Assembly: GCA_030390025.1 (NCBI GenBank)
Contig: CM059432.1
Span: 74,402,001-74,466,000, forward strand
Source: Squalus acanthias
Lineage: Eukaryota
Length of the DNA stretch: 64,000 nucleotides
Direction of reading: 5' to 3'
Made by a program: the position numbers and the translations under genes. Of this stretch, positions 16,923 to 60,935 are shown one piece after another (the stretch's first letter is position 1; each line of letters opens with the position of its first letter). Below the pieces are notes generated by a model. That model did not search any database and was not told the DNA's origin. It saw nothing but the letters and a program-made list of their open reading frames with translations.

Positions 16923-17451
16923 GGGCTGGATTTTCATAGGGCCGTGGAGGCGGGTTTGGAGGCGTGTGGGGGTTAAAATAGCGAAAAGTGGCGGGCGGAC
17001 CTGATCCCGACTCCATTCCGCCTCCACGCAATTTTGATAAAATCGTTTGCGGTGTTCCCGACTCCGTCCCGCCTCCAAGAGGTGGGAGAGGCCATTAAAG
17101 CCCTTAACAAGCCCTAAATTAGCTCTGTAATGCCATTTTGAAACTTTTTAGCTAGTTTAACCCTTTTCCCACGTGAAGCACGCCTGTTCTGAAACACGAC
17201 GGTGAAACCTGGCGGGAGCACAAGTGGATTGCTGACTCTAAGCTGCAGCTCAACCTTTAAATAGGAGATTTGATCAGCCATCAATTGCAGGTGGCAGGAC
17301 TTTGTTGTCACAGGTCTGGGGGAACTTTTAGAAGGCATAACCACAGCTCTGGAAGTTTGGAGCCTGACACCCATCTCCAGTGTGACCTCCTGGGAAACCC
17401 CTCTCGCCACCCTCATTGAGCGCTTCCTCAACTGAGACATATACCAGAGGC

Positions 17452-18705
17452 ATGGGAGCCATTTATTTCTTTCCCTCCTGGGCATCCGATGAGGATGAAC
17501 AACAGCCACGGCACCAGCAGAACCATGAACAACAGCAGCACCAACAGCAGCAGCAACAGCAGGAACGCCAAGCTGCTGCTCACCCGCCTGAAGCTGCACA
17601 GGCCAGAAGGTGCCAGCGCATGGAAGGCCGTCGGCACAGGAGATACCCCCCAAACAGGGTCTACAGACAGAGGATCAGCTACCTCAACATGTCTGAGCAG
17701 CAGTGCCAAAGGCGGCTCCGACTTTCGCGAGAGGTAGTGGGTGACATCTGCGCAATGCTGCAACAAGACCTGGAGCCCAGAGGACCAGGTGGACACCCCT
17801 TACCAGTGGCCGTCAAAGCCACCACCGCACTAAACTTTTTTGCCTCAGGCTCATTCCAGGGATCAGCAGCAGACATCAGCGGCATCTCCCAGGCGGCCGC
17901 ACACACCTGCATCACGCAGGTAACCGATGCCCTCTTTGCCATCGCGCACAATCACATCCATTTCACCAAGGATCAAGCAAGTGTCACGGCGCGTGCGGTT
18001 GGATTAGCTAATCTGGCAGGCTTTCCAAGGGTGCAGGGCGTCGTTGACTGCACACATGTGGCCCTTAAGGCACTCCATCGCAATCCAGGTATTTTTGTCA
18101 ACCGCAAGGGCTTCCACTCCCTCAACGTTCAGCTGGTGTGTGACCACAAGAAGGAAGTTCTGCATGCTTGTGCCAAGTACCCTGGCAGTTGCCATGACTC
18201 CTTCATACTGCACCAGTCTAGTGTGCCTCCGCTATTCAGTCCACCAGACTAACTTCACGGATGGCTACTTGAAGACAAGGGCTATCCCCTGAAGACGTGT
18301 CTAATGACGCCGTTGAGGAGCCCATCCAACGCAGCTGAGGAGAGCTACAATTCCAGCCACATTTCCACCAGAGCCATAATCGAGCAAACCATTGGTATGC
18401 CGAAGATGCGCTTCAGATGCCTGGATAGATCAGGTGGAGCCCTGCAATACTCAGCAGCCAGGGTCTCCAGAATCGTCGTGGTTTGCTGTGTACTTCACAA
18501 CATGGCACAGCGTCGTGGCTTACAGATGCCGGAGGACCAAGTGGCTCCTCACATAGCCTCCTCAGATGAGGAGGAGGAGGAGGAGGAGGAGGAGGAGAGA
18601 GAGAACGAACAACTTGCAGAGGCCCCTCAACCAGCGGCAGCATTACGCGAGACCATAGCTGCCCGGAATGCAAGGAACGCACTCATCTTGGCCAGATTTG
18701 CTTAG
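17452..18705 (+). pseudogene. Harbinger (HARBI1-like, DDE_Tnp_4) transposase with one premature stop
   Basis: ORFs 17416-18252 and 18304-18705 are in the same frame, separated by TAA at 18250-18252; motifs FFASGSFQ, VVDCTH, NRKGFHSLNVQLVCD, PGSCHDSFI, EDKGYP, IEQTIG, CCVLHN. Confidence 0.93.
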
Positions 18706-18962: not shown

Positions 18963-20928
18963 CTATTTGTGCAGTTTCTTTCTCTTACGCGTGCTCCTAC
19001 GTGGTGCTTCCCCTGTGGCTTCAGCAGAAGTGGAGGCCCCCTGCTCAGTTTGTTGCTGCTCCTGTCTCGACACCTTTGGTGGGCGTCCTCTGGGGTTGCG
19101 AACCTGCGAGGGCTCAGCAACAGTCTGCTGCTCCTGCGGCTGGGCAGGGGTTGAGACGCCGATCTCAGTTGGGTGCGGACTCTGGTGGGGCTCTGACTGA
19201 GGACTTGTCAGTGGCATGGAAGTGTGAGCGCTTGGAGAGGAGCCCCCACCTCCTTGTTGTCTGCCACCAACATCCCTCTCATGGGTCAGGTCCACCTCAG
19301 CGCTTGCAAGTGGATTGAGAGCACCTTGCTGCACATCAGGGGGGCCATGGGGACCCGTATCTGCACTGGAAGTCCTACTCAGAAGGACTTCCATGAAGGT
19401 CTGGTTTCTCTGTTCAATAGATGACCATCGCTCCTCAAGAGATGCCAGTCTATTCTGAACAATGACCATGTTTTCTACACTCTGGCGACTTATCTCCTCC
19501 ATAGCCATAGCCATCCTCTCCTCTACTGTAGCCATCCTTTCCACGGAGGTTGCCATCCTTTCCGTGGTGATGCGTTCATGTGCCAATGACTCCACAAAGG
19601 CTCTGCTCATGTTCGCTATGGACTCCTCCATTCGCTCCACACTTGCAGCGACCCTGGAGACAAAACCTGTCAGAGACTCCTGCATCTGTTCCTGGAGTCC
19701 CAGCACTGCTGATCTTATGGATGGACCCAGAGGCAGAGGGTCGACATGCAGCTGAGCCGAGCTAGGAGAGTCCTGCGCCCTCCGACTAGGACTCTCCACT
19801 GTTGTCCCTGTCTCCACCATCTGCTGATGCTCACTTGTGAGCTGTGATACACCAGGTGACAACACTATTCTATGTCCCGAGGGTCCCACCGAGGTGTAAG
19901 TGTCTGCGCTGGTGCTGGGTGCACTGAGTTCTGCTGATGCTGCACCCTCAGAGGTTGCAGCTTCCTCTGAGGAGTCTGGCTGCTCAGGCTCTTCCTCCTG
20001 GCTAGTGGGGACGGGTGCTTGCGATGGTCCTGTGGGGGAGTAAAGGAAAGAGTCAGAGATGTGATGCCAAGGTTACATGCACATTGCATATTGCAAATGA
20101 TCATAAATCCATCTGTTAGAGCTTCAGATTCATTATCAGCGACTCATGCAATGTCAATGAGAGAGATGGAACACTATTCTGTCACCAGCTTGCTGTGATG
20201 CACCTGTCTGTCCGTCCCCCACTTGCGTATCCTCCTCTACTCCCACGATCTCCAGGACCGCATCCTCCCAGGGGGTGAGCTGGGCTAATGAGGGTAGCCC
20301 TCCTCCTGTCCTGGCTCTTTCCCTTTTATTGTGAGCTCTGTTTTCCTGCAATGAGGGAGACAAGTGGAGTTTGAGTGAGATTGAAGGAGTGAGTGTAGAG
20401 AATCCATAGCATAGATGCTTAGAAGGAGACAAAGATGGATTGAGGTGGTGAGACTAAGGGCCCTCCCTGTGTGTTGTAAGTTGTTTTCAAAGCATGACAG
20501 TGATAGGTAGTGTGAGGGCTGCATAGTCAAATAGTAAGATGAATGTGACCATAGAGGGAGAGGGAATGGGTAAGGGTGCATGGATGTCAGTGTCAAGTGG
20601 GATATGGAGGAAGAGGTTGCTAAAGCTGAGTGCTGGTGAGGAGAGGCAATGGGGATCAGATTGAGCGTGAAGGGAAAGTCATACTTACTTTAGCAGTACG
20701 TAGAAGGTCATGAAACCTCTTCCTGCACTGGATCCAGGTTCTGCAGGTGAATGATAAGGAGTTGACCTCCTGGGCGACCTGGACCCACACAGCCTTGGTC
20801 TGCTGGGGAGGCTTCTTCCTCCCTGAGGAGGGGAAGAGCACCTCTCTGTTGGCTCTTGCTCCATCCACCAAAGCTTGCAGGGCAACGTCATCGAACCTGG
20901 GAGCAGACCTGGGTCATTGGCTGGCCAT
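18963..20928 (-). pseudogene. Harbinger Myb/SANT-like protein, 3 exons (20928-20689, 20345-20186, 20029-18963), one premature stop
   Basis: MASQ*PRSAPRFDDVALQALVDG...WVQVAQEVN...WIQCRKRFHDL; GT-AG splicing (phases 0 and 1) joins in frame to ORF 18963-19889; basic C-terminus RRSTRKRKKLHK. Confidence 0.9.
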
Positions 20929-24150: not shown

Positions 24151-24529
24151 AAATACTCAGAACAACAAACCCACGTTACAGACATGCCCACTTGCTTCAC
24201 CATCTCCTCCTATCTCTCTGAAGTTAGAGATCCAGTGAACTTTTCTCACATAGGGTTGCTTCTTGAACTGTAGCAGGTCCTCCTCTAGAAGCTATGGCCT
24301 GCTAACTATTAAATGCCACCTTCTCCTCCAGGGACACATAAGACTTCCATGATCCCGTACAACAATAGCAGGGCTGTTTCCCTTTGCATTCAGAAATAGT
24401 TGCAGTTACTGTGAAAATGGTGCCGTTTTACTGATCTTTCATGCAATAGATACTTGTGTGGATTGAGTGTGGCTTGTGACCAGTGAGTCAATCCTTATTA
24501 TGCAGGAAACTGTACTGTCATTACAAGAT

Positions 24530-27423
24530 GTACCGGCAGACAGGAAGATGGCTTGAAGTGTGTCTACTTCAATGCAAGGAGCATCCGGAATAAGGTAGGA
24601 GAACTTGGAGCGTGGATTGGTACTTGGGACTACGATGTGGTGGCCATTACGGAGACATGGTTAGAACAGGGACAGGAATGGTTGTTGGAAGTTCCGGGGT
24701 ATAGATGTTTCAGTAAGAGTAGGGAAGTTGGTAAGAAAGGTGGAGGAGTAGCATTGTTAATCAAGGATAGTTTAACAGCAGCAGAAAGGCAGTTCGAGGG
24801 GGATCTGCCGTCTGAGGTAATATGGGCTGAAGTTAGAAATAGGAAAGGAGCGGTCACGTTGTTAGGAGTTTTCTACAGGCCCCCAAATAGTAATAAAGAT
24901 GTGGAGGAAGAAATTGCAAAGCAGATTATGAATAGGTGTGGAGGTCACAGAGTAGTTGTCATGGGTGACTTCAACTTTCCAAATATTGATTGGAACCTTT
25001 ATAGGTCAAACAGTTCGGATGGGATAGTTTTTGCACAGTGTGTGCAGGAGGGTTTCCTGACACAATATGTGGATAGGCCGACAAGAGGTGGGGCCACGTT
25101 GGATTTGGTACTGGGTAATGAACCGGGCCAAGTGTTTGATTTGTATGTGGGAGAGCACTTTGGAGATAGTGACCACAATTCGGTAACTTTCACTATTGCA
25201 ATGGAGAGGGATAGGGCCATACGGCAGGGCAGGGTTTATAATTGGGGGAGGGGTAATTATGATGCGATTAGGCAAGAATTAGGGAGTATAAGATGGGAAC
25301 AGAAACTATCAGGGAAAGGCACAAACGAAAAGTGGAGCTTTTTCATGGAGCAATTACTGCGTGTCCTTGATAGGTATGTCCCTGTCAGGCAGGGAGGAAA
25401 TGGCCGAGTGAGAGAACCATGGTTCACAAAAGAGGTTGAATGTCTAGTCAAGAGGAAAAAGGAAGCGTATGTAAGGATGAGAAAACAAGGTTCAGTTGGG
25501 TCGATTGAGGGGTACAAGGTAGCAAGGAATGAGCTAAAAAAAGAGCTTAGGAGAGCTAGGAGGGGGCATGAGAAGTCCTTGGCGGGTCGGATCAAGAAAA
25601 ACCCCAAGGCTTTTTACTCTTATGTGAGAAATAAAAGAATGACCAGGGTGAGGGTAGGGCCGGTCAAGGACAGTAGTGGGAACTTGTGCATGGAGTCAGA
25701 AGAGATAGGAGAGGTGATGAATGAATACTTTTCGTCAGTGTTCACCGAGGAGAGGGCCATGTTCTTGAGGATGAGAGTGTGATAAAGGTGGATAGGCTGG
25801 AGGTGGTAGATGTTCTGAGGGAAGATGTTTTAGCAATTTTGAAGAACCTGAGGGTCGATAAGTCCCCTGGGCCAGATGGGATATATCCTAGGATTCTTTG
25901 GGAGGCAAGGGAGGAGATTGCAGAGCCTCTGGCTTTGATCTTTGGGTCCTCACTGTCCACGGGGATGGTACCAGAGGACTGGAGAGTGGCGAATGTTGTT
26001 CCTCTCTTCAAGAAAGGAAATAGGAATGACCCTGGTAATTATAGGCCGGTTAGTCTTACTTCGGTGGTTGGTAAGATAATGGAAAAGGTCCTGAGGGATA
26101 GGATTTATGACCATTTGGAAAGGGGCAACTTAATCAGGGATAGTCAACACGGATTCGTGAAGGGTAAGTCTTGCCTAACAAATTTGATTGAATTCTTTGA
26201 GGAGGTAACTAAGTGTGTAGATGAAGGTAGAGCAGTTGATGTCGTATACATGGATTTTAGTAAGGCGTTTGATAAGGTTCCCCATGGTCGTCTCATGAAG
26301 AAAGTAAGGAGTTGTGGGATAGAGGGAAATTTGGCCGATTGGATAAGTAACTGGCTATCTCATAGAAGGCAGAGGGTGGTGGTGGATGGAACATTTTCGG
26401 ACTGGAGACCAGTTACCAGCGGTGTGCCACAGGGGTCGGTGCTGGGTCCTCTGCTGTTTGTGATTTTTATCAATGACTTGGAGGAGGGGACTGAAGGGTG
26501 GATCAGTAAATTTGCTGATGACACCAAGATTGGTGGAGTAGTGGATGAGGTGGAGGGCAGTTGTAGGCTGCAAAGAGACATTGATAGGATGCAGAGCTGG
26601 GCCGAAAAATGGCAGATGGAATTTAACCCTGATAAGTGCGAGGTGATTCATTTTGGTAGGGCAAATTTGAATAAGGATTACAGGGTCAACGGCAGGGTTC
26701 TGAGGAACGTGGAGGAGCAGAGGGATCTGGGGGTTCATATCCACAGATCTCTGAAGGTTGCCACTCAAGTGGATAGAGCAGTAAAGAAGGCCTATGGTGT
26801 GTTGGCGTTTATTAACAGAGGGTTTGAGTTTAAGAACCGTGAGGTTATGCTGCAACTGTACAGGACCTTGGTGAGACCACATTTGGAATATTGTGTGCAG
26901 TTCTGGTCACCTCACTATAGGAAGGACGTGGAAGCATTGGAAAGAGTGCAAAGGAGATTTACCAGGATGCTGCCTGGTTTGGGGGGGAGGTCTTATGAGG
27001 AAAGATTGAGGGAGTTGGGGCTTTTCTCTTTAGAGCGGAGGAGGATGAGAGGCGACTTAATAGAGGTTTATAAGATGATGAGGGGGATAGATAGAGTGGA
27101 TGTTCAGAGACTATTTCCTCGGGTAGAGGCAGCTGTTACAAGGGGGCATAACTATAAGGTGCATGGGGGGAGATATAGAAGGGATGTCCGAGGTAGATTC
27201 TTTACTCAGAGAGTGGTTGGGGTGTGGAATGGACTGCCTGCTGTGATAGTGGAGTCGGACACTTTAGGAACTTTCAAGCGGTTATTGGATAAGCACATGG
27301 AGCACACCAGAGTGATAGGGAGTGTGATAGCTTGATCTTGGTCTCGGACAATGCTCAGCACAACATCGAGGGCTGAAGGGCCTGTACTGTGCTGTACTGT
27401 TCTATGTTCTATGTTCTATGCTA
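24530..27423 (+). mobile_element. Young CR1 LINE with complete ORF2 region, truncated just upstream of ORF2
   Basis: APE + RT ORFs, 3' UTR and (CTATGTT)n tail at ~27400-27423. Confidence 0.96.
24553..27335 (+). pseudogene. CR1 ORF2 (APE endonuclease + reverse transcriptase) with a single frameshift near 25760
   Basis: YFNARSIRNK, ITETWL, YRPP, GDFN, SDHN (409-aa ORF); KSPGPDG, YMDFSKAFD, GVPQGSVLGP, FADD (518-aa ORF). Confidence 0.95.
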
Positions 27424-28589: not shown

Positions 28590-30105
28590 TAAGAACATAA
28601 TAAATAGGAGCAGGAGTAGGCCATATGGCCCCTTGAGCCTGCTCTGCCATTCAATAAGATCATGGCTGATCATCGACCTTAACTCCACTTTCCCGCCCGA
28701 TCTCCATATCCCTTGATTCCCCTAGAGTCCAAAAATCTATCTATCTCAGTCTTGAATATAATCAAAGACTCAGCATTCACAGCCATCTGTGGCAGAGAAT
28801 TCCAAAGATTCACAACCCTGACTGAAGAAATTCCTCCTCATCTCGGTCTTAAATGGCCTACCCCTTATCCTGAGACTATTCCCCCTAGTTCTAGACACTC
28901 CAGCCAGGGGAAACAACCTCACAGCATCTACCCTGTCAATCCCCCTTCAGAATCTTATATGTTTCAATGAGGTCACCTCTCATTTTCTAAACTCCAGAGA
29001 GTATAGGCCCATTCTACACAATCTCTCATCATGGGACAGCCCTCTCATCCCAGGAATCAATCTAGTGAACCTTTGTTGCACCGCCTCCAAGGCAAGTATA
29101 TCCTTTCTTAGATAAGGAGACCAAAACTGTGCACAGTACTCCAGGTGTGGTCTCACCAGGGCCCTGTACAATTGTAGCAAGACTTCCTTACTCTTATACT
29201 CCAACCCCTTTGCAATAAAGGCTAACATGCCATTTGCCTTCCTTATTGCTTGCTGTACTTGCATGCTAGCTTTCTGTGTTTCTTGCACAAGGACACCCAA
29301 ATCTCTCTGAACATCAACATTTAAAAGTTTCTCACCATTTAAAAAATATTCTGTTTTTCTATACTTCCTACCAAAGTGAATAACCTCATATTTCCCTACA
29401 TTATACTCCATCTGCCACATTACTGCCCACTCACTTAGTCTATCTATATCCGTTTGCAGACTCTTTGTGTTCTCCTCACAGCTTACTGTCCCACCTAGCT
29501 TTGTATCGTCAGCAAACTTGGATACATTAGACTTGGTCCCTTCATCTAGGTCATTGATTTAAATTGTAAATAGCTGAGGCCCCAACACTGATCCTTGTGG
29601 CACCCCACTAGTTACAGCCTGCCTGAAAAAGATCCATTTATCCCTACTCTCTGTTTTCTGTCCGTTAACCAATCCTCTATCCATGCTACTATTACCCCCA
29701 ACCCCATGAGACCTGATCTTGTGTAATAACTTTTTATGTGGCACCTTATTGAATGCCTTTTGGAAATCCAAATATACTACATCCACTGGTTCCCTTTTAT
29801 CTACCCTGCTAGTTACATCCTCAAAAAACTCTAATAAATTTGTCAAACACGATTTCCCTTTCATAAGACCATGTTGACTCTGCCTAATCATGTTATGATT
29901 TTCTAAGTGCTCTGATACCACTTCCTTAACAATGGATTCCAGCATTTTCCTGACGATTGATGTCAGGCTAACTGGCCTGCAGTTCCCTGTTTTCTCTCTC
30001 CCTCCTTTCTTGAATAGCAGTGTTACATTTGCGACCTTCCAATCCACTGGGACCGTTCTAGAATCTCGGAAATTTTGGAAGATCTAAACCAATGCATCCA
30101 TTCCA
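28590..30105 (-). mobile_element. CR1 LINE 3' fragment
   Basis: ORFs 29559-30047 and 28980-29420 with RT motifs; single GGAGCAGG-type 3' UTR. Confidence 0.93.
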
Positions 30106-34879: not shown

Positions 34880-35478
34880 GGGAATTGTAGAAGGGTATGC
34901 CAGGAGTAGCACCAGGCAGACCTTAGAATGAGGCACCAAGCTAGTGAAACTAAAATACAGAGCTTCTTGCATGCTCAACACAAAAAGCAGAAAGCTATAG
35001 CCAGAGCTAAGCAGTCCCACAACCAATGGATCGGAGCAAAGCTCTATAGCCTTACCAATCCAGTTGAGAATAGCGGTGTACAATCAAACAATTAAGGGGA
35101 GTAGGAGACTCCATGGACATCCCGATCCTCAATTATATGCGCAGGCCAGTATGTGAGTGCAAGAGACAAGGCTGTAGTGTTTGCAAACTTCTTTAGCTAA
35201 AATGTGTCAAGCAGACAATCCCACTTGGCCTCCTCCCACTATCGTAGAGTGTAGAGAATCCAGCCAATTCAGTTCACTCCACGAGGCATTAAGAAGTGGC
35301 TAGGTGCGCTGGACACAGCAAAGGCTATGGGCCCTGACAACATCCAGACTACAGTGTTGAAGATCTGTGTAGCAGGACTAACTGGCACCTTAAGCTATTT
35401 CAGTGCAGCTATGACACTGGTATCTACCTGACAATGTGGAAGATTGCTCTATCCACAAAAAAAAGAACACACCTAAGC
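34880..35478 (+). mobile_element. Older family B LINE, left part (continues at ~41450-42165)
   Basis: Collinear with ~3930-4460 of the 3546-5860 copy. Confidence 0.8.
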
Positions 35479-38400
35479 CTTTTTTTTATATACGTTCCTG
35501 GGATGTGGGCGTCGCTGGCAAGGCCAGCATTTATTGCCCATCCCTAATTGCCCTCGAGAAGATGGTGGTGAGCTGCCTTCTTGAACCGCTGCAGTCCATG
35601 TGGTGAAGGTATTCCCACAGTGCTGTTAGGGAGGGAGTTCCAGTATTATGACCCAGCGACGATGAAGGATTGGCGATATACTTCCAAGTCAGGATGGTGT
35701 GTAACTTGGAAGGGAACTTGGAGGTGGTGGTGTTCCCATGCTCCTGCTGCCCTTGTCCTTCTCGGTGAAAGAGGTCACAGGTTTGGGAAATGCTGCCGAA
35801 GAAGCCTTGGCGAGTTGCTGCTGTACATCTTGTAGATGGTACACACTGCAGCCACGGTACGCTGGTGGTGGAGGGAGTGAATGTTTAAGGTGGTGGATGG
35901 GGTGAAATCAAGTGAACTGCTTTGTCCTGGATGTTGTCGAGCTTCTTCAGTGTTGTTGGAGCTGCACTCATCCAGGCAAGTGGAGAGTATTCCATCACAC
36001 CCCTGACTTGTGCCTTGTAGATGGTGGAAATGCTTTGGGGAGACACTCGCCGCAGAATACCCAGCCTCTGACCTGCTCTTTTGGCCACTTTATTTATGTG
36101 GCTGGTCCAGTTAAGTTTCTGGTCAATGGTGACCCCCAGGATGTTGATGGTGGGAGATTCGACGATGGTATTGCTATTGAATGTCAAGGGGCGGTGGTTA
36201 GAGTCTCACTTGTTGGAGATAGTCATTGCCTGGCACTTGTGTGGCGTGAATGTTACTTGCCGGTTATCAGCCCAAGCCTGAATGTTGTCCAGGTCTCGCT
36301 GCATACGGGCATGGGCTGCTTCATTATCTGAGGAGTTGCAAATGGAACTGAACACTATCATCATTAGTGAACATCCCCACTTCTGACCTTATGATGGATG
36401 GAAGGTAATTGATGAAGCAGCTGAAGATGGTTGGGCCTAAGACACTGCCCTGAGGAACTCCTGCAATGATGTCCTGGGACTGAGATGATTGACCTCCAAC
36501 AACCACAACCATCTTCCTTTGTGCTAGGTATGATCCAGCCAGTGGAGAGTTTACCCCCTGATTCCCATTGACTTTAATTTTACTGGAGCTCCTTGATGCC
36601 ACACTCGGTCAAATGCAGCCTTGATGTCAAAGGCAGTCACTCTCGCCTCACCTGTGGAATTCAACTCTTTTGGACCAAGGCTGTAATGAGGTCTGGAGCT
36701 GAGTGGTTTTGGTGAGTAAGTGCCACTTGATAGCACTGTCGATGACACCTTCCATCACTTTGCTGATGATTGAGAGTAGACTGATGGGGCGGTAATTGGC
36801 CGGATTGGATTTGTCCTGCTTTTTGTGAACAGGACATACCTGGGCAATTTTCCACATTGTCGGGTAGATGCCAGTGTTGTAGCTGTACTGGAATAGCTTG
36901 GCTAGAGGCGCAGCTAGTTCTGGAGCACAAGTCTTCAGCACGACAGCCGGGATGTTGTCGGGCCCAAAGCCAGTGTGCTCAGCTGTTTCTTGATATCACA
37001 CGGAGTGAATCGAATTGGCTGAAGACTGGCTTCTGTGATGGTGGAGACCTCAGGAGGAGGCCGATATGGACCATCCACTTGGCACTTCTGGCTGAAGATG
37101 GTTGCAAAAGCTTCAGGCTTGTCTTTTGCACTCATGTGCTGGACTCCGCTATCATTGTGAATGGGATATTCATGGAGCCTACTCCTCCCGTTAGTTGTTT
37201 AATTGTCCACCACAATTCACAACTGGATGTGGCAGAACTGCAGAGCTTTGATCTGATCCATTGATTGTGCAATCACTTAGCTCTGTCTATAGCACGCTGC
37301 TTCTGCTGTTTAGCATGCATGTAGTCCTGTGTTGCATCTTCACCAGGTTGGCACCTCATTTTTAGGTACCCCTGGTGCTGCTCCTGCTTCTGCACTCATC
37401 ATTGAACCAGGGTTGGTCCCCTGGCTTGATGGTAATAGTAGAGTGAGGGCACAGAATGTACTCTGATATGCCGGGCTATGAGGTTGTAGATTGTGGTGGA
37501 ATACAATTCTGCTGCTGCTGATGGCCCACAGTGCCTCATGGATGCCCAGTTTTGAGCTGCTAGATCTGTTCTGAATTTATCCTATTTAGCACGGTGGTAG
37601 TGCCACACAACACGATGGACGGTGTCCTCAGTGTGAATACAGGACTTCGTCTCCACAAGGACTATGTGGTGGTCACTCCTACCAATGCTGTCATGGACAG
37701 ATGCATCTGCGACAGGTAGATTGGTGAGGGCGAGTTGAAGTAGGTTTTTCCCTCATGTTGGTTCTCTCACCACCTGCCGTAGGCCTAGTCTGGCAGCTAT
37801 GTCCTTCAGGACTTGGCCAGCTCGGTCAGTCGTGGTGTTACCAAGCCACTCTTGGTGATGGACATTGAAGTCCCCCACCCAGAGTACATTCTGTGCCCTT
37901 GCTACCCTCAGTGCTTCTTCCAAGTGGTGTTCAACATGGAGGAGTACTGATTCATCAGCTGAGGGAGGGCGGTAGGTGGTAATCAGCAGGAGGTTTCCTT
38001 GCCCATGCTTGACCTGATGCCATGAGACTTCATGGGGTCCGGAGTCAATGTTGAGGACTCCCAGGGCCACTCCCTCCCGACTATATACCACTGTGCCACC
38101 ACCTCTGGTGGGTCTGTCCTGCCGGTGGGACAAGACATACCCAGGGATGGTGATGGAGGAGTCTGGGACATTGGCTGAATGGTATGATTCCGTGAGTATG
38201 ACTATGTCATAGTCACAGACTAGTCTGTGGGATAGCTCTCCCAATTTTGGCAGAAGTCCACAGATGTTAGTGAGGAGGACTTTGCAAGGTTGTCATGTCC
38301 AAAGCCGGTGCCGAGTCGATGCCGGGAGTTCCATCCAGTTTTACTCTTATTATTGCTTTTTGTAGTGGTTTGTTACAACTGAGTGACTTGCTAGGCCATT

Positions 38401-39133
38401 TTAGAGGGCAGTTAAGAGTCAACCACATTGAATCATAGAAATCATAGAAAGTTACAGCACGGAAGGAGTCCATTTCGGCCCATCGTGTCTGCGCCGGCCA
38501 ACAAAGAGCTATGCAGCCTGATCCCACTTCCCAGCTCCAGGTCCATAGCCCTGCAGATTACAGCATCCCAAGTGCGCATCCAAGTACTTTTTAAATGTGG
38601 TTAGGGTTTCTGCCTCTACCACCCTTTCAGGCAGTGAGTTCCAGACCCCCACAATCCTCTGGGTGAAGAAATTTCCCCTCAAATCCCCTCTAAACCTTCC
38701 ACCAATTACTTTAAATCTGTGCCCCCTGGTTTTTGACCCCTCTGCTAAGGGAAATAGGTCCTTTCTATCCACTTTATCTAGGCCCCTCATAATTTTATAC
38801 ACCTCAATAAGGTCTCCCCTCAGCCTCCTCTGTTCCAAGGAAAACAAACCCAGCCTATCCAGTCTTTCCTCATAGCTAAGATTCTCTACTCCCGGCAACA
38901 TCCTTGTAAATCTTCTCTGTACCCTCTCTAGTGCAATCACATCTTTCCTGTAATGTGGTGACCAGAACTGCACGCAGTACTCTAGCTGAGGCCTAACTAG
39001 TGTTTTATACAGTTGAAGCATAACCCCCCTGCTCTTGTATTCTATGATGCGGAGATGCCGGTGTTGGACTGGGGTGGACAAAAATGAGAAGTCGCACAAC
39101 ACCAGGTTATAGTCCAACAGTTTTATTTAAAAT

Positions 39134-39168
39134 TACGAGCTTTTGGAGCTCCGCTCCTTCTTCAGGTA
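39134..39168 (-). ncRNA. Second hammerhead copy with the core GAAA changed to AAAA
   Basis: Reverse complement reads TACCTGAAGAAGGAGCGGAGCTCCAAAAGCTCGTA. Confidence 0.7.
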
Positions 39169-39395
39169 CAGGTACAGTGAGGGAATACAAATCGATTACA
39201 CAGTATATATATATACAGAGAACAACGTGTCTGCAGAGATACAATCTGTTAGGGAGGCATTACATCAAAGACACATCAGAGTACAGCTAAGACAATGAGG
39301 TGAGTCACAGGGGGTCCAACGTGTCAAATGCTGCCGTCTGCAGTTAAGCTTTTAACTTTTTTTTTAAAACTGGAAAAACAGACAACGATGTCGAG

Positions 39396-39945
39396 TCACG
39401 TTCTGTAGCATGACATGAACCCGAGATCCCTGTTGAGGCCGTCCTCATGAGTGCGGAACTTGGCTATCAGTTTCTGCTCGATGATTTTGCGTTGTCGTGT
39501 GTCTCGAAGGCCGCCTTGGAGAACGCTAACCCGCAGATCTGAGGCTGAATTTCCTTGACTGCTGAAGTGTTCCCCGACTGGGAGGTAACAATCCTGCCTG
39601 GCGATTGTTGCGCGGTGTCCGTTCATACATTGTCTCAGTGTCTGCATGGTCTCGCCGATGTACCATGCCGCGGTGCATTCTTTCCTGCAACGTATGAGGT
39701 AGACAACATTGGCCGAGTCACATGAGTATGTACCATGTACCTGGTGGGTAGTGTCCTCACGTGTGATGATGGTATCTGTGTTGATGATCTGGCATGTCTT
39801 GCAGAGGTTGCCATGGCAGGGTTGTGTGGTGTCGTGGTCGCTGTTCTCCTGACAGCTGGGTAATTTGCTGCGAACGATGGTACTTTTGAGGTTAGGCGGC
39901 TGCTTGAAGGCGAGTAGTGGAGGCGTGGGGATGGCCTTAGCAGGG
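39396..39945 (-). pseudogene. Penelope GIY-YIG endonuclease C-terminal fragment with Cys-rich linker
   Basis: PCHGNLCKTC...YSCDSANVVYLIRC...WYIGET...HR...VGEHF...GLNRD. Confidence 0.9.
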
Positions 39946-40345
39946 AACACTTCAGCAGTCAAGGACGTTCAGCCTCGGATCTGCGGGTTAGCGTTCTCCA
40001 AGGCGGCCTTCGAGACACACGACAACGCAAAATCATCGAGCAGAAACTGATAGCCAAGTTCCGCACCCATGAGGACGGCCTCAACAGGGATCTCGGGTTC
40101 ATGTCACGCTATAGAACGTGACTCGACATCGTTGTCTGTTTTTCCAGTTTAAAAAAAAAGTTAAAAGCTTAACTGCAGACGGCAGCACTTGACACGTTGG
40201 ACCCCCTGTGACCCACCTCATTGTCTTAGCTGTACTCTGATGTGTCTTTGATGTAATGCCTCCCTAACAGATTGTATCTCTGCAGACACATTGTTCTCTG
40301 TATATATATACTGTGTAATCGATTTGTATTCCCTCACTGTACCTG

Positions 40346-40380
40346 TACCTGAAGAAGGAGCGGAGCTCCGAAAGCTCGTA
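40346..40380 (+). ncRNA. Minimal type I hammerhead ribozyme in the Penelope pseudo-LTR
   Basis: TAC-CTGAAGA-A-GGAGC-GGA-GCTCC-GAAA-GC-TC-GTA: conserved cores, stem II, palindromic AGCT stem III, short stem I. Confidence 0.8.
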
Positions 40381-41295
40381 ATTTTAAATAAAACTGTTGG
40401 ACTATAACCTGGTGTTGTGCAACTTCTCATTCTTGTATTCTATGCCACGGCTAATAAAGGCAAGCATTCCGTATGCCTTCTTAACCACCTTATCTACCTG
40501 GCCTGCTACCTTCAGGGATCTGTGGACATGCACTCCAAGGTCCCTTTGTTCCTCTACACTACTCAGTGTCCTACCATTTAATGTGTATTCCCTTTCCTGT
40601 TAGCCCTCCCCAAATGCATTACCTCACACTTCTCCGGATTGAATTCCATTTGGCACTGTTCTGCCCATCTGACCAATTTATTGATATCATCCTGCAGTCT
40701 ACAGCTTCCTTCTTCAGTATCAACCACACAGCCGATTTTAGTATCATCTGCAAACTTCTTAATCATACCCCCTATATTCAAGTCTAGATCATTGATATAT
40801 ACCACAAAAAACAAGGGACCTAATACTGAGCCCTGCGGAACCCCACTGGAAACAGCCTTCCAGTCACAAAAACACCCATCAACCATTACCCTCTGCTTCC
40901 TTCCTCCGAGCCAGTTTTGAATCCAACTTGACACTTTGCCCTGGATCCCATGGGATTTTAACTTCATGACCAGTCTGCCATGTGGAACCTTATCAAAAGC
41001 CTTGCTAAAGTCCATATACACTACATCAAACACACTACCCTCATCTACCCTCCTTGTTCCCTCCTCAAAAAATTCAATCAAGTTTGTCAGACACGACCTT
41101 CCCTTAACAAATGCTGTGTGTCTCGAGTCCAAACCAGGTAAGGATGGCAGATTTTGTTTCCTAAAGGACGTTAGTGACCAGATGGGTTTTTACGACAATC
41201 TGATAATTTCATGACCACCATTACTGTTACTAGCTTTTTATTCCAAATTTTTAAAATTTTATTTAAGTGAATTTAAATTCCCCAGCTGCTGTGGT

Positions 41296-41447
41296 GGGAT
41301 TTGAACTCACATCTCTGGATCATTAGTCCAGGCCTATGGATTACTAATACAAAAGCAAAATACTGCGGATGCTGGAAATCTGAAATAAAAACAGAAAATG
41401 CTGGAAATGCTGGATTACTAGTCCAGTAACATAACCACTATGCTACC
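41296..41447 (-). promoter_or_regulatory. tRNA-derived type 2 Pol III internal promoter (A box and B box)
   Basis: A box TAGCATAGTGG (41445-41435); B box GAGTTCAAATCCC (41308-41296); spacing ~52 nt once the 41347-41410 insert and one TSD copy are removed. Confidence 0.8.
41347..41410. mobile_element. 64-bp insertion, probably the terminus of a second Penelope family
   Basis: 10-bp TSD TGGATTACTA (41337-41346 / 41411-41420); AAAAGCAAAATACTGCGGATGCTGGAAATCTG recalled as a shark Penelope terminal motif. Confidence 0.6.
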
Positions 41448-41449
41448 TT

Positions 41450-42165
41450 TCCTAATCATCAACAATATGATGGAAGGAGTTATCAATAGTACCTTCAAGC
41501 AACACCTACTCACCAAAAACATGCTCACTAATGCTCAACGTGTGCTCTCAGAAAACCATGCATCTCAAAACCTAGTCATAGCCTTGATCGAGACATGGAC
41601 GTAAGAGCTGAATTCTAAAGGAAAGGTGAGAGCAACTGCCCTTGACATCAAGGCAGCATTCAACTGAGTATGGCACCACGGATCCCTAGCAAGACTGAGG
41701 TCAGTGATTGTCAAGCAAAATCTCTCCAGTGGCTAGTCATACCCAGTAAGATGGTAGTGGTTGTTGAAGGGCAATCACTGCAACCTCAGGATATAACTGC
41801 TGGAGATTCTCAGGAATTGTCTTTAGCCCAACAATCTTTAGCTGCTTCGTTAATGACCTTTTCTCCATAATAAGTTCGGAAGTGGGGCTGTTTGCTGATG
41901 ATTCTGCAGTGTTCAGCTACATTCACAACTCCTCCAGTAATGAAGCAGCCCATGCCAGCCTACAGCAGGACTTGGGCAGTATTCAGATGAGCTAACAAGT
42001 GGCGGGTAAAATTTGCATTACATCAGTGCCCAGTAATGACCATCTCCAACAAGAAAAGGCCCAGCACCTACCCCTGACCTTTAATGGCACCATCGTCACC
42101 TGAGTTCCCCATCATCAACATCTTGGGGGTCACCACTGACCAGAAGCTTAATTGGACCAGCCAGT
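41450..42165 (+). mobile_element. Older family B LINE, right part
   Basis: Collinear with ~4500-5235 (ALDIKAAF, LFADD, ILGVTTDQKLNWT). Confidence 0.8.
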
Positions 42166-47200: not shown

Positions 47201-49685
47201 CATAAGAACATAAGAACATAAGAAATAGGAGCAGGAGTAGGTCAATCGGCCCCTCGAGCCTGCTCCGCCATTCAATAAGATCATGGCTGATCTGATCCTA
47301 ACCGCCAATCTACTATCTATCACAGAACCATCTCCTGCATCTAACAGAATTGCACACACGAAATAGGAGCAGAATCAGGCTACACGGTCCCTGGGCCCGC
47401 TCCACTACCCACAGGGCCATGACCGATCCGAACCTAGACTCATGTCCAAATTCCTGCCCGCTCCCCGTAACCCTTAATGCCCTTTACTTCTAGGAAACTG
47501 TCTATTTCTGTTTTAAATTTATTTAATGATGTAGCTTCTACAGCTTTTTGTGGCAGCATATTCCATGGACCTACCACCCTCTGAGTGAAGTAGTTCCTCC
47601 TCATCTCAGTTTTGAAAGAGCAGCCCCTTATTCTAAGACTATGTCCCCTAGTTCTAGTCTCACCCGTCATCGGGAACATCCTCCCCGCATCCACCCGATC
47701 CAACCCCTTCACAATCTTATATGTTTCAATAAGATCGCCTCTCATTCTTCTGAACTCCAATGAGTAGAGTCCCAATCCACCCAACCTCTCCTCATATGAC
47801 CACCCCCTCATCCCCGGGATTAACCGAGTGAACCTTTTTTGCACTGCCTCGAGAGCAAGGATGTCTTTCCTTAAGTAAGGACACCAAAACTGTATGCAGT
47901 ATTCCAGGTGCGGTCTCACCAATACCTTGTACAACTGAAGCAATACCTCCCTATTTTTATATTCTATCCCCCTAGCAATGAAAGCCAACATTCCATTTGC
48001 CTTCTTAATCACTTGCTGCACCTGCATACTAACCTTTTGAGTTTCGTGCACCAGGACCCCCAGATCCCTTTGCACTTCAGTACTCTCCAGTTTCTTGCCA
48101 TTAAGATAATAAATTGCTCTAGGATTTTTCCTGCCAAAGTGCATCACCTCACACTTTCCAGTGTTGTATTCCATCTGCCAAATCTCTGCCCACTTACTTA
48201 GCCTGTCTATGTCCCCTTGCAGGTTTTTTATGTCCTCCTCACTCATTACTTTCCCTCCCATCTTAGTATCATCTGCAAATTTTGATATGTTACACTTGGT
48301 CCCTTCCTCCAAATCGTTAATATAGATTGTAAAGAGTTGGGGACCCAGCACTGACCCCTGTGGAACACCACTAGTTACTGATTGCCAGTCTGAGAATGAA
48401 CCATTTATCCCAACTCTTTGCTTTCTGTTAGATAGCCAATCCTCTATCCATGCCAGAATATTACCCCCAATCCCGTGATTTTTTACCTTAAGCAATAATC
48501 TTTTGTGTGGCACCTTGTCAAATGCCTTTTGGAAGTCTAAATACACTACGTCCACTGGTTCCCCTTTATCCACTCTATATGTTACTTCCTCAAAGAACTC
48601 CAGCAAATTTGTCAAACATGACTTCCCCTTCGTAAAACCATGCTGACTTTGTCCTATTAAATTATGATTATCCAAATGTCCTGTTACTGTTTCCTTAATA
48701 ATGGACTCCAAAATTTTACCTACCTCAGATGTTAGGCTAACCGGTCTATAGTTACCAGCCTTCTGTCTACTGCCCTTTTTAAATAAGGGTGTTACATTAG
48801 CAGTTTTCCAGTCTGCCGGGACCTTCGCGGAATCCAGGGAGTTTTGAAAAATTATTACCAATGCATCTACAATCCCTACCGCCACTTCCTTCAAGACTCT
48901 AGGATGTAAGCCATCAGGTCCAGGTGATTTATCCGCCTTGAGTCCCATTATTTTACCGAGTACCACTTCCTTAGTGATTTTGATCGTGTTTAGCTCCTCT
49001 CCCCCTATAGCCCCCTGTTTGTCCAGTGTTGGGATATTCTTAGTGTCCTCTACTGTAAAGACTGATACAAAATATTCATTCAGTGTTTTTGCCATCTCCA
49101 TATTTCCCACCATTAATTTCCCGGTCTCATCCTCTAAGGGACCAACATTTACTTTAGCCACCCTTTTTCTTTTTATATAACTATAAAAACTCTTACTATC
49201 TGTTTTTATATTTTTTGCTAATTTACTTTCATAATCTATCTTCCCTTTCTTAATCAATCTTTTTGTTATTTTTTGCTGCCTTTTAAAGTTTTCCCAATCC
49301 TCTGCCCTCCCACTAGATTTTGCTACCTTATATGCCCTTGTTTTTAGTCGAATACTATCCTTAATTTCTTTACTTAGCCACGGATGACTGTCCTTTCTTT
49401 TACACCCTTTTCTTTTCAGTGGAATATATTTTTTTGGAAGTTGTAAAATAACTCCTTGAATGTACACCACTGATCTTACCCTTTAATCTATTTTCCCAAT
49501 CCACTCTACTCAATTCCGCTCGCATACCTTCATAGTCTCCTTTATTCAAGCTTAGCACGCTTGTTTGAGATCCAACCTTCTCACCCTCTAATTGAATATG
49601 GAATTCAACCATGTTATGGTCACTCATTCCAAGGGGATCCTTTACTAGGACATTTTTAATTAATCCTGTCTCATTACACAGGACA
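47201..49685 (-). mobile_element. Young CR1 LINE, 5'-truncated within the endonuclease
   Basis: 676-aa open RT region; duplicated 3' UTR; (TTCTTATG)n tail. Confidence 0.96.
47440..49470 (-). CDS. CR1 ORF2 reverse transcriptase and C-terminal region (open frame, lacks an intact endonuclease)
   Basis: [43 protein letters not shown]. Confidence 0.85.
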   Translation of the reverse strand: MVYIQGVILQLPKKYIPLKRKGCKRKDSHPWLSKEIKDSIRLKTRAYKVAKSSGRAEDWENFKRQQKITKRLIKKGKIDYESKLAKNIKTDSKSFYSYIKRKRVAKVNVGPLEDETGKLMVGNMEMAKTLNEYFVSVFTVEDTKNIPTLDKQGAIGGEELNTIKITKEVVLGKIMGLKADKSPGPDGLHPRVLKEVAVGIVDALVIIFQNSLDSAKVPADWKTANVTPLFKKGSRQKAGNYRPVSLTSEVGKILESIIKETVTGHLDNHNLIGQSQHGFTKGKSCLTNLLEFFEEVTYRVDKGEPVDVVYLDFQKAFDKVPHKRLLLKVKNHGIGGNILAWIEDWLSNRKQRVGINGSFSDWQSVTSGVPQGSVLGPQLFTIYINDLEEGTKCNISKFADDTKMGGKVMSEEDIKNLQGDIDRLSKWAEIWQMEYNTGKCEVMHFGRKNPRAIYYLNGKKLESTEVQRDLGVLVHETQKVSMQVQQVIKKANGMLAFIARGIEYKNREVLLQLYKVLVRPHLEYCIQFWCPYLRKDILALEAVQKRFTRLIPGMRGWSYEERLGGLGLYSLEFRRMRGDLIETYKIVKGLDRVDAGRMFPMTGETRTRGHSLRIRGCSFKTEMRRNYFTQRVVGPWNMLPQKAVEATSLNKFKTEIDSFLEVKGIKGYGERAGIWT

Positions 49686-50043: not shown

Positions 50044-51630
50044 CAACAACAACTTGTATTTATATAGTGCCTTTAACGTAGTAAAACGTCCCAAGGTGCT
50101 TCACAGGAGTGTTATAGGACAAAACTTTGACACCGATCCACATAAGATGAAATATGGGCAGATGACCAAAAGCTTGGTCAAAGAGGTAGGTTTTAAGGAG
50201 CGTCTTAAAGGAGGAAAGAGAGGTAGAGAGGCAGAGAGGTTTAGGGTGGGAGTTCCAGAGCTTAGGGCCTAGGCAGCTGAAAGCTCGGCCATCAATGGTG
50301 GAGCAATTATAGGTCGCACAACACCAGGTTATAGTCCAACAGTTTTATTTGAAATTTCAAATAAAACTGTTGGACTATAACCTGGTGTTGTGCGACCTCT
50401 CAATTTTGTCCACCCCAGTCCAACACCGGCATCTCCGCATCAGGAGCAATTATAGTCAGGGATGCTCAAGAGGGCAGAATTAGAGGAGCGCAGATATCTC
50501 GGTTGGGGGTGGGGGGTGTGGGCCTGGAGGAGATTACAGAGATAGGGAGGGGCGAGGCCATGGAGGGATTTGAATACAAGGATGAGAATTTTAAAATCGA
50601 GGCGTTGCTTAACTGGGAGCCAATGGAGGTCAGCAAGCACAGGGGTGATGGGTGAACGGGACTTAGTGCGAGTTAGGACACGGGCAGCAGAGTTTTGGAT
50701 GACCTCAAGTTTACATAGGGTAGAATGTGGGATGCCAGCCAGGAGTGCGTTGGAATAGTCAAGTCTAGAGGTAACAAAGGCATGGATGAGGGTTTCAGCA
50801 GCAGATGAGCTGAGGCAGAGGCAGAGATGGGCAATGTTACAGTGGTGGAAATAGGTGGTCTTAGTTATGCCACGGATATGTGGTCGGAAGCTCATTTCAG
50901 GGTCAAATATGACACCAAGGTTGCGAACAGTCTGGTTCAGACTCAGACAGATGTTAAGGAAAGGGATGGAGTCGGTGGCTGGGAATGGAGTTTGTGGCGA
51001 GAACCAAAGACAATGGCTTCGGTCTTCCTAATATTTAATTGGAGAAAATTTCTGCTCATCCAGTACTGGATGTCGGACAAGCAGTCTGACAATTTAGAGA
51101 CCATGGAGGGGTCAAGAGGTAGTGGTGAGGTAGAGCTGGGTGTCGTCAGCGTACATGTGGAAACTGATGCCGTGTTTTCGGATGATGTCGCCAAGGGGCA
51201 GCATGTAGATGAGAAATAGGAGGGGGCCAAGGATAGACCCTTGGGGGACCCCAGAGGTAACGATGCAGGAGTGAGAAGATTAGGTGATTTTCTGGCTACG
51301 ATTAGATAGATAAGAATGGAACCAGGCAAGTACAGTCCCACCCAGCTGGACGATGGTGGAGAGGCATTGGGGGAGGATGGAGTGGTCAACCGTGTCAAAG
51401 GCTGCAGACAGGTCAAGATGGACGAGGAGGGATAGTTAACCTTTGTCACAGACACAAAGGATGTCATTTGTGACTTTGAGAGCTGTTTCGATACTGTGGC
51501 GGGGTGGAAACTGGATTGGAGGGATTCAAACATGGAATTCTGGGAAAGATGGGTACAGATTTGGGAGGCGACAACACATTGAAGGACTTTGGAGAGGAAA
51601 GGGAGGTTGGAGATGGGGTGTTAGTTTGCA
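50044..51630 (-). mobile_element. L2 LINE 3' fragment
   Basis: AETLIHAFVTSRLDYSNALL, LHWLPVKQRLDFK, NFLQLNIRKTE; (TTG)n tail. Confidence 0.92.
50311..50442. mobile_element. Minimal Penelope insertion: 88-bp perfect palindrome plus ~43-bp tail
   Basis: Homologous to 39047-39130; TSD GGAGCAATTAT(AG) at 50300 and 50443. Confidence 0.9.
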
Positions 51631-52100: not shown

Positions 52101-52618
52101 TTTTTTTTCATTCATTCATGCGATGTGGGCGTCACTGGCAAGGCCAGCATTTATTGCCATCCCTAATTGCCCTTGAGAAGGTGGTGGTGAGCCGCATTCT
52201 TGAACCGCTGCAGTCCGTGTGGTGAAGGTACTCCCACAGTGCTGTTAGGGAGGGAGTTCCAGGATTTTGACCCAGCGACGATGAAGGAATGGCGATATAT
52301 TTCCAAGTCAGGATGGTGTGTGACTTGGAGGGGAACTTGGAGGTGATGGTGTTCCCATGTGCCTGCTGCCCTTGTCCTTCTAGGTGGTAGAGGTCGCGGG
52401 TTTGGGAGGTGCTGTCGAAGAAGCCTTGGCGAGTTGCTGCAGTGCATCTTGTAGATGATACACACTGCAGCCACGGTACGCCGGTGGTGGAGGGAGTGAA
52501 TTTTCAAGGTGGTGGATGGGGTGCCAATCAAGTGGGCTGCTTTGTCCTGGATGGTGTCGAGCTTCTTGAGTGTTGTTGGAGCTGCACTCATCTCAGCAAG
52601 TGGAGAGTATTCCATCAC
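52101..52618 (-). mobile_element. Family B LINE 3' fragment
   Basis: MEYSPLA...FKNAAHHHLLKGN*, 3' UTR, poly(A). Confidence 0.92.
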
Positions 52619-59879: not shown

Positions 59880-60935
59880 CCGATATAGGGTAACCCTGTG
59901 GATGTTGGCTATTTGGACTTCCAGAAGACATTTGATAAGGTTTCACACAAGAAATTATTAGCGAAAATGAAAGCGCATGGAATTGGAGGTAACCTTGTGA
60001 CATGGGTTAATAATTGGTTGAGAGGTAGGAGACTGAGTGTAGGGATAAAAGGAATTTTCTCTGATTGGCAGGATGTGACAAGTGGTGTTCCCAAGAGATC
60101 TGTACTGGGGCCTCAGCTTTTCACCTTATATATTAATGACTTGGATGAAGGAATAGATTTGTATATTCAAGTTTGCAGATGACACTAAGTTAAGAGGCAC
60201 AGTATGTTGTGTAGATGGGAGCAGGAAGTTACAAAGGGATATAGATAGACTGTAAATGTGCAAAAAAAGTTATTGGAATTTTTTTTTTATTTGTTCATGG
60301 GATGTGGGCATCACTGGCAAGGCCAGCATTTATTGCCCAATCCTTAGTTGCCTTTGAGAAGGTGGTGGTGAACCGCCTTCTTGAACTGCTGCAGTCCATA
60401 TGGTGAAGGTACTCCCACAGTGCTGTTAGGGAGGGAGTTCCAGGATTTTGACCCAGCGACAATGAAGGAACACCGATATACTTCCAAGTCAGGATGGTGT
60501 GTGACTTGGAGGTGGTGGTGTTCCAATGCGCCTGCTGCCCTTGTCCTTCTAGGTGGTAGAGGTCACGGGTTTGGGAGGTGCTGTCGAAGTAGCCTTGGTG
60601 AGTTGCTGCAGTGCATCTTGTAGATGGTACACACTGCAGCCACGGTATGCCGGTGGTGGAGGGAGTGAATGTTTAAGGTAGTGGATGGGGTGCCAATCAA
60701 GTGGGCTGCTTTGTCTTGGATGGAATGTTGGCCTTTATCTCAAGGGGTTGGAATACAAGGATGAAGTAATGCTTCAGTTGTACAGAGCCTTGGTCAGACC
60801 CTATCTGAAGTATTGCATTCAATTTTGGGCACCGATCCTCAGGAAATATATATTGGCTTTGGCGAGGGTACAGCGCAGATTCATCAGAATGATACCCGGT
60901 TTAAAGGGCTAGATTATGAGGATAGGTTGCATAAA
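59880..60935 (+). mobile_element. CR1 RT fragment interrupted by family B
   Basis: YLDFQKTFD, GVPKRSVLGP, then LYRALVRPYLKYC after 60722. Confidence 0.85.
60278..60722 (-). mobile_element. Family B LINE 3' fragment
   Basis: SWNSLPNSTVGVPSP...HHHLLKGN*, poly(A). Confidence 0.9.

Follow-up and report, generated by a model that had tools for sequence, protein, structure and literature searches.

The window analysed here, a stretch of 64,000 nucleotides from Squalus acanthias (GenBank assembly GCA_030390025.1, contig CM059432.1, positions 74,402,001 to 74,466,000), carries on its minus strand a copy of a long interspersed nuclear element (LINE) in which a tRNA-type head with A and B boxes precedes one open reading frame (ORF) for an apurinic/apyrimidinic (APE) endonuclease (EN) and a reverse transcriptase (RT). 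The head belongs to the element itself, occurs family-wide and is conserved in sharks and a ray. Its sequence identifies the family as the CR1-Zenon of elasmobranchs reported by Stuart et al. 2026 (PMC13343379); the LINE lineage is thus known, while the tRNA-headed coding architecture is undescribed in the literature examined. [quoted passage not shown] Direct support exists for the architecture, the family-wide 5′ end, a depletion of terminators, selection on the ORF and the absence of an in-frame AUG.

The head as 5′ end of the family

The 3.7-Gb genome was searched, and loci were drawn by similarity to the head, the body or the RT. Nearly all head-selected loci (28 of 29) run on into the EN–RT ORF, the remaining one being a short head-plus-tail derivative. 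Among nine body-selected loci the head lies directly upstream in seven, while one is truncated within the head and one starts inside the body; the twelve RT-selected loci (the top of 148 RT matches) comprise two that reach the head, ten that are 5′-truncated and none with an alternative 5′ end. An earlier note, made from the sequence of this DNA alone, had proposed that a different 5′ end in other copies would mark the head as an independent short interspersed nuclear element (SINE), and no such end occurs among the body- or RT-selected copies. The idea of a SINE that landed beside a 5′-truncated LINE at this locus could draw on the lack of an enclosing target-site duplication (TSD) around the unit, but it is refuted by the recurrence of the same junction in 28 of 29 head-selected copies, in five species and in some 2,000 or more exact motif matches (2,042 and 2,362 for the junction of 5′ untranslated region (UTR) and ORF in two motif counts). 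The note had also asked whether full-length copies start at the head with TSDs enclosing head and body. The first part held, in the genomic copies as in all seven of the consensus rows described below; the second did not, as the mean best match around head and body was 2.9 nt in 24 copies and 2.4 nt in 552 mismatched pairs, which is no signal.

Twenty head-selected loci were extended, of which 17 attained the 3′ tail; together with L003-L009 and the window copy they make up the 25 aligned full-length copies from which a consensus was derived. It is about 3.3 kb long, with a sharp 5′ edge and a single frame open over 973 codons, and the copies are 92-97% identical to it. At the GGGAACGG edge, which coincides with tRNA position 1, support climbs from about 0.4 to 0.76-1.0. 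Pfam domains for the endonuclease (PF03372/PF14529) and the RT (PF00078) were found on other copies, and the 3′ end motif has 9,056 forward-strand matches, the reverse count being inflated by overlaps.

Zenon is described as a CR1-group lineage without ORF1 that occurs in elasmobranchs, coelacanth and hagfish and has a poly(A) tail, unique to it among CR1-group elements (PMC13343379). The family shares the published elasmobranch traits, namely a single APE endonuclease plus RT ORF, no ORF1 and a poly(A) tail, and SquAca_Zenon-1 (3314 characters) agrees by eye with its consensus almost letter for letter over the first 400 nt. All seven published shark and ray consensus rows (SquAca_Zenon-1, -2 and -3, and the _Zenon-1 rows of CarCar, RhiTyp, ScyCan and HypSab; five species, one of them a ray) open with the head when their first 400 nt are compared by eye; in the same stretch of the hagfish (two rows) and coelacanth (one row) Zenon the head is not visible. 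The lack of ORF1, which the earlier note had considered unusual, is a standard Zenon trait. The lineage is accordingly known and its ORF1-less state ordinary, and what goes unremarked in the Zenon paper is the head: "tRNA" and "promoter" do not occur in its main text, "tRNA" does not occur in its supplement as examined, and in these parts the published account describes neither the head nor terminator avoidance nor an absent AUG. A quick RT tree of 60 rows, drawn without named references, placed the family on a long branch apart from the canonical CR1s of the window (about 31% amino acid identity). A metagenome scan returned distant relatives only (24-41% amino acid identity), none with similarity to the head. 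Literature searches, with Repbase and Dfam outside their range and prior notice there possible, gave no account of a tRNA head on Zenon or of a Pol III-driven autonomous LINE. Some Repbase entries of the Ingi type may have tRNA-like 5′ ends.

The halves of the head score 25.3 and 22.1 bits as tRNA in Rfam, both below the cut-off of 29 bits, and a run of ARAGORN on the window yielded no tRNA gene; it is these scores, taken together with the same head–body junction in other copies, that lift the head above chance. A pattern derived from the head matches host tRNA-Ser genes, and among eight host tRNA genes (three Ser, two Lys and three Cys) Ser(GCT) aligns best, with z 6.5 vs 2.4-4.5. The A-box consensus, TRGCNNARYNNG, is degenerate at positions 2 and 4-5, and the A-box changes across the seven consensus rows are, by eye, confined to exactly these positions, while the B box reads GTTCRAATCC in six of the seven. 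The acceptor and T stems pair poorly (folding z of the head -0.3), and in our reading the acceptor stem is unable to form. Because the boxes persist across species while the acceptor stem is lost, the head appears to be a maintained DNA promoter rather than a tRNA mimic. The same stems bear on the proposal that the head is an RNA processing signal, with an RNase P-type cut freeing the element from host read-through in the manner of the 5′ ribozymes of R2, RTE and Ingi. A 5′ edge that is sharp at tRNA position 1 would suit such a signal, and elements of six LINE clades are known to cleave themselves at the 5′ end; however, the poor pairing speaks against it and terminator avoidance is left unexplained, making the proposal very improbable. 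As a separate observation, long tandem arrays of tRNA-Ser(GCT) with a spacing of about 1.62 kb occupy C26:39.0-41.5 Mb of the same genome, and similar tRNA arrays with a spacing of about 1.78 kb lie on C29, C2208 and C1516.

Selection, terminators and the 3′ end

Among the non-CpG variants shared by at least 4 of 25 head-bearing copies, 41 are synonymous and 34 non-synonymous, vs 330 and 821, respectively, among private variants. This excess of synonymous changes in shared variants shows purifying selection for the EN–RT protein in the head-bearing source copies, which therefore needed their protein. Pol III-made RNAs have been found to retrotranspose with ORF2p alone, whereas Pol II-made RNAs need ORF1p (PMC2666806), and an ORF1-free element transcribed by Pol III would agree with that result.

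The consensus contains no run of four or more T (T4), and 14 runs of four or more A. Taken alone, the absence of T4 has a P of 0.014 under base shuffling and 0.0015 under uniform codons. Only one 5-nt window holds at least four T, vs 11.5 expected under base shuffling (0/150), 6.4 under a dinucleotide null (P 0.013) and 5.6 under synonymous-codon shuffling (P 0.013); T-rich 6-nt windows number 7, vs 22.5 and 15.2 expected, and A- and C-rich windows show no depletion. Seventeen of 24 other single copies are free of T4, and the density of T4 in five CR1-type pieces of the window is 3.4-6.6/kb; the nested CR1 pieces have 5.9 (5′ piece) and 1.7/kb, another LINE piece 1.7/kb and a short Penelope piece 0. 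Of 80 distant metagenome relatives, 79 contain T4. Shared X-to-T variants that create T4 (0 of 96, vs about 1.4 expected) are too few to inform. As a sequence pattern, this avoidance of terminators supports Pol III transcription independently of the head. In terms of SINE2 elements, the family has the tRNA-derived 5′ head with A and B boxes and lacks an internal Pol III terminator, but it is neither short nor non-coding, being 3.3 kb long with a 973-codon frame under purifying selection.

The 3′ end consists of AATAAA, a hairpin, a variable T-run and an A tail, in this order. The T+ SINEs (B2, Dip, Ves; PMC8466645) also have a tRNA head and AATAAA followed by a variable T-run and an A tail; they are, in contrast, short, non-coding, mammalian and L1-dependent, and polyadenylation of Pol III transcripts has been demonstrated for them, whereas in Zenon it is a candidate only. 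Short junctions of head to tail gave 223 exact matches with varied breakpoints and, since the junctions vary, the short forms look derived from the full-length, tRNA-headed coding element. One SINE-like head-plus-tail derivative lies at L014:1460-1855, and several independent deletion breakpoints are seen in such forms. Head-to-tail joints also occur in sequencing-run contigs of four organisms (4 of 24 runs), from which start, strand and level are not readable. [quoted passage not shown]

The short forms (the 223 junction matches and L014) imply that mobilisation in trans occurs, and they lend themselves to a division of labour in which Pol III makes only the template RNA, as for a giant SINE, while a few loci supply the protein in trans by way of capped Pol II transcripts that are spliced or arise by read-through. 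That RNAs made by Pol III generally lack both a cap and a coding function is in keeping with this. Purifying selection on the shared variants of head-bearing copies, however, fits the use of each copy's own ORF in cis, and a capped mRNA leaves the absence of an in-frame AUG unexplained, for which reasons this division of labour is judged distinctly unlikely.

Translation start and the transcription model

In the consensus the EN–RT frame opens at nt 330, and in-frame ATG, CTG, GTG and TTG codons are all absent before the first EN strand. The start proposed in the earlier note, ATG 38428 (MWLTLN...), is out of frame with EN in both the window copy and the consensus, where it is ATG274, and was rejected for being one base out of frame. 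Two further candidates fell as well. ATG358 followed by a -1 frameshift is out of frame by one base, reads ATA in 40 of 100 copies among the matches listed and, in our reading, lacks a canonical slippery site ahead of the first EN strand; ACG339, as a near-cognate start, is replaced by ACA or AAA in the four other species, and some of the copies here have ACA as well. From GCT (336-338) onward, by contrast with the sequence just upstream of it, the frame is kept by eye in CarCar, ScyCan and HypSab, with eight codons to a shared Asn-Glu, and in RhiTyp, with seven, the published SquAca-1 and -2 rows being one base off behind GCT. Frame-keeping lengths behind GCT are found in 95 of 100 copies among the matches listed, a count confounded by an AAT repeat, and the N-terminal stretch that follows is basic, like that of several homologues. 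Immediately upstream of GCT, most copies here have a TAA that closes the frame and RhiTyp has a 1-nt gap, so that by eye it is broken in two of the five species. Because the frame is kept downstream across species and broken just upstream, the EN–RT start seems to be bracketed near the in-frame GCT. Many of the homologues P0001-P0120 are 900-1,050 aa long and lie on 3.1-3.9-kb contigs, and in a rough motif test 11 of 62 long homologues lacked the first EN strand after the predicted start; AUG-less starts may be wider in the lineage.

The block of about 155 nt before GCT is near-invariant by eye between sharks and the ray, with at least one compensatory change (in RhiTyp, by eye). At its end lies a hairpin, predicted to have the loop CU-AGC-AA, of which AGC is complementary to the GCU 12 nt behind the hairpin, and both the AGC loop and the in-frame GCT are conserved. 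In the internal ribosome entry sites (IRESs) of dicistrovirus intergenic regions (IGRs), pseudoknot I consists of a loop paired with a triplet that lies in frame, and decoding begins at the codon after it (PMC10516663, PMC12221177). The type 6 IGR IRES (6e 142-154 nt) is likewise a block of about 150 nt directly before an AUG-less ORF, and it shares with the Zenon block a terminal hairpin loop able to pair with an in-frame triplet, the next codon being Thr or Lys. The Zenon block differs in that it has no match in Rfam, offers 3-4 possible pairs, of which the fourth varies as does the second loop base, and shows no recognisable L1.1, SLIV or SLV; the likeness is one of resemblance, not membership. 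No convincing compensatory changes between loop and codon were seen in 100 copies among the matches listed. Pairing of loop and codon at GCU in the manner of the IGR IRESs is hence put forward as speculation. Were it to occur, the loop would pair with GCU and set the EN–RT frame with no need of an AUG, an initiator tRNA or initiation factors, and the element would be a self-sufficient Pol III retrotransposon with a UTR block equivalent, on the cellular side, to the IGR IRES, a version that we consider unlikely.

A strong-context AUG-GCC-UAG is present in the EN frame at consensus 303, and its AUG occurs in all five species; between it and the ORF lies a second stop in this genome or a 1-nt gap in RhiTyp, and both stops are missing in 3 of 100 copies among the matches listed. 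AUG303 provides a starting point for the view that the element is a Pol II LINE with a passenger head, in which a SINE head would have been captured once, a Pol II promoter would lie in or near the UTR block, the depletion of T-runs would reflect codon or composition bias, and a capped RNA would be translated by reinitiation or stop read-through after AUG303. Non-LTR elements are generally taken to be transcribed by Pol II, the UTR block is better conserved across species than the head, several nulls for T4 alone are non-significant, and LINE clades differ widely in base composition (10.1101/788562). On the other hand, sharks and the ray retain the A and B boxes while the remaining tRNA decays, the depletion of T-rich windows holds when protein and codon usage are kept constant, and the second stop or the gap separates AUG303 from the ORF. 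On balance, a Pol II LINE of this kind appears rather unlikely.

For the preferred reading, we infer Pol III transcription, a mechanism of 3′ end formation and cap-independent initiation together with its exact site. Pol III would transcribe all 3.3 kb of the element, since T-run terminators have been cleared from the sense strand, and the RNA would end near AAUAAA, the T-run or the poly(A) end, as the RNAs of T+ SINEs do. This RNA, lacking a cap, would have its translation initiated by the conserved 5′ UTR block instead of an AUG, at or just after the in-frame GCU, the EN–RT protein would copy its own RNA without ORF1p, and internal deletions would yield ready-made SINE-like elements.

A number of points weigh against a Pol III-transcribed autonomous LINE. 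No intact copy was found, the longest open frame among the 148 best RT matches being 874 aa. Loss of ORF1 needs no Pol III, since Zenon of hagfish and coelacanth is equally free of ORF1 and does not show the head, and the B box of the ray consensus has a one-base gap. The absence of T4 alone is non-significant in a synonymous shuffle (P 0.12) and under first- and second-order Markov nulls (P 0.19 and 0.52), the Markov nulls absorbing the TT deficit. G-rich windows are mildly low too (dinucleotide null, P 0.02), and the metagenome relatives that served as controls are far more AT-rich than the family. SINE lengths of 100-700 bp have been tied to the weak processivity of Pol III (Kojima 2024, PMC10886601), and 3.3 kb is well beyond them. 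At the 3′ end, a run of at least four T precedes the A tail in 9 of 35 ends, or in 6 of 56 among the loci listed, and T-runs before A tails can grow once an element has inserted (PMC8466645). Folding of the UTR block does not exceed that of shuffled sequences (z -0.2), with a long predicted helix at z of about 0.

The window copy and related systems

The minus-strand unit of the window (41453-35480) has the order head and 5′ UTR, nested CR1, EN–RT body, AATAAA and A8 tail, in agreement with the layout of a head with A and B boxes, EN–RT body and poly(A) given in the earlier note, and has no space for ORF1, as also stated there. The tRNA-Ser-like head's 5′ half spans 41453-41410, from the family 5′ edge at 41453 (consensus support, Rfam and alignment), and includes the A box, TAGCATAGTGG, at 41445-41435. 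A secondary insert (41409-41336), absent from other copies, parts it from the 3′ half (41335-41286; Rfam and alignment), which consists of a variable-arm-like hairpin and the B box, GTTCAAATCC, at 41306-41297. A 64-bp insert had been noted before, and is present; the full interruption is 74 bp, as it includes one copy of a 10-bp duplication, and after its subtraction the gap from A to B box is 54 nt. An AT-rich 5′ UTR spacer (41285-41190), more variable across species when the published 5′ ends are compared by eye, leads into the first part of the conserved block (41189-41114; consensus 185-271), near-invariant by eye between sharks and ray.

Here a fragment of a canonical CR1 that is foreign to the unit (38431-41113, minus strand; sequence comparison and domains) interrupts the block and contains a Penelope-type insert (40430-39047) with 497-bp direct repeats and a 14-bp TSD, the same nesting as noted earlier. 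The second part of the block (38430-38361) holds the out-of-frame ATG 38428, the hairpin with its loop CTAGCAA at 38394-38388, and the GCT site at 38366-38364, where the in-frame codon is mutated to ACT in the window copy. The single APE endonuclease plus RT frame (38372-35544) is broken here, and the short 3′ UTR (35543-35480) contains AATAAA (35535-35530), a hairpin (z -2.1) and the A8 tail (35487-35480). At 93% identity to the family consensus and with 11 frameshifting indels, the window copy is dead. It sits in an older, Zenon-like relative on the plus strand, which the earlier note had correctly recognised as broken by the insertion; the split is at about 35478/41452, where a TSD is absent and some 30 nt are missing, and the 5′ piece (34886-35478) and the 3′ piece (41454-42163) have 74% and 75% identity to the family consensus, respectively. 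Full-length members of this older relative were sought, and all 11 of the other loci obtained belong to the younger family.

Elsewhere in the window, further 5′-truncated copies of the same Zenon family lie at 3546-5860 (+), 52101-52618 (-) and 60279-60723 (-), with 89-96% identity to the consensus; the first, of 2.3 kb, has zero T4 runs. Canonical CR1-type LINE pieces with EN/RT domains, which served as controls for T-runs, are found at 24487-27335 (+), 47440-49482 (-), 1535-3541 (-), 29055-30092 (-) and 16008-16913 (+), and a short inverted piece at 50305-50442 is a related Penelope end. Two facing ORFs, at 17386-18252 (+) and 18966-20072 (-), are probably one Harbinger transposon; by eye the first resembles what we take to be a Harbinger/PIF (HARBI1-type) DDE nuclease, and the second has no Pfam match.

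Several known systems share parts of this architecture. The tRNA-derived SINEs on bipartite LINEs (Bov-tA, SINE2-1_ACar, SINE2_Gav and CoeSINE4; Kojima 2015, PMC4494074; 2018, PMC5786205) combine a tRNA head with a LINE 5′ UTR and 3′ tail, which is the layout of the short deleted Zenon copies, but they are non-coding, whereas the Zenon head sits on a full-length coding element. Cassandra, Helenus and Ajax (TRIMp3; PMC10886601) are also retroelements with Pol III promoters derived from small RNAs; unlike Zenon, they are non-autonomous long terminal repeat elements below 1.3 kb. The Persaeus short internally deleted element (SIDE) of lepidopteran Zenon (PMC6740152) is likewise an internally deleted Zenon derivative, though described as having neither tRNA similarity nor a Pol III promoter. 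Finally, SacSINE1 and the CmiSINEs of cartilaginous fish (PMC5499810) are also tRNA-headed shark retroposons, which are set apart from Zenon by their described Deu or CORE body and L2-2_CM-type tail; in the literature examined, nothing ties them to Zenon.

The textbook divide holds LINEs to be coding and transcribed by Pol II, and SINEs to be non-coding and transcribed by Pol III (PMC10886601). If the preferred reading is true, a SINE promoter on a selected ORF in an abundant shark and ray family breaks this divide and provides a natural Pol III mRNA, and deletion of the middle of a tRNA-headed LINE would be a direct route to the birth of SINEs. The absent AUG makes the initiation of ORF2-type proteins of LINEs testable, and the boundaries of ORF2 would have to be reconsidered if a non-LTR element carried an IGR-type IRES (PMC3894237). 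A compact LINE without ORF1 or terminators could also serve as an assay system. Should the IGR-like version be true as well, Zenon would be a LINE independent of Pol II, cap, AUG and ORF1p, which sheds SINEs through internal deletion.

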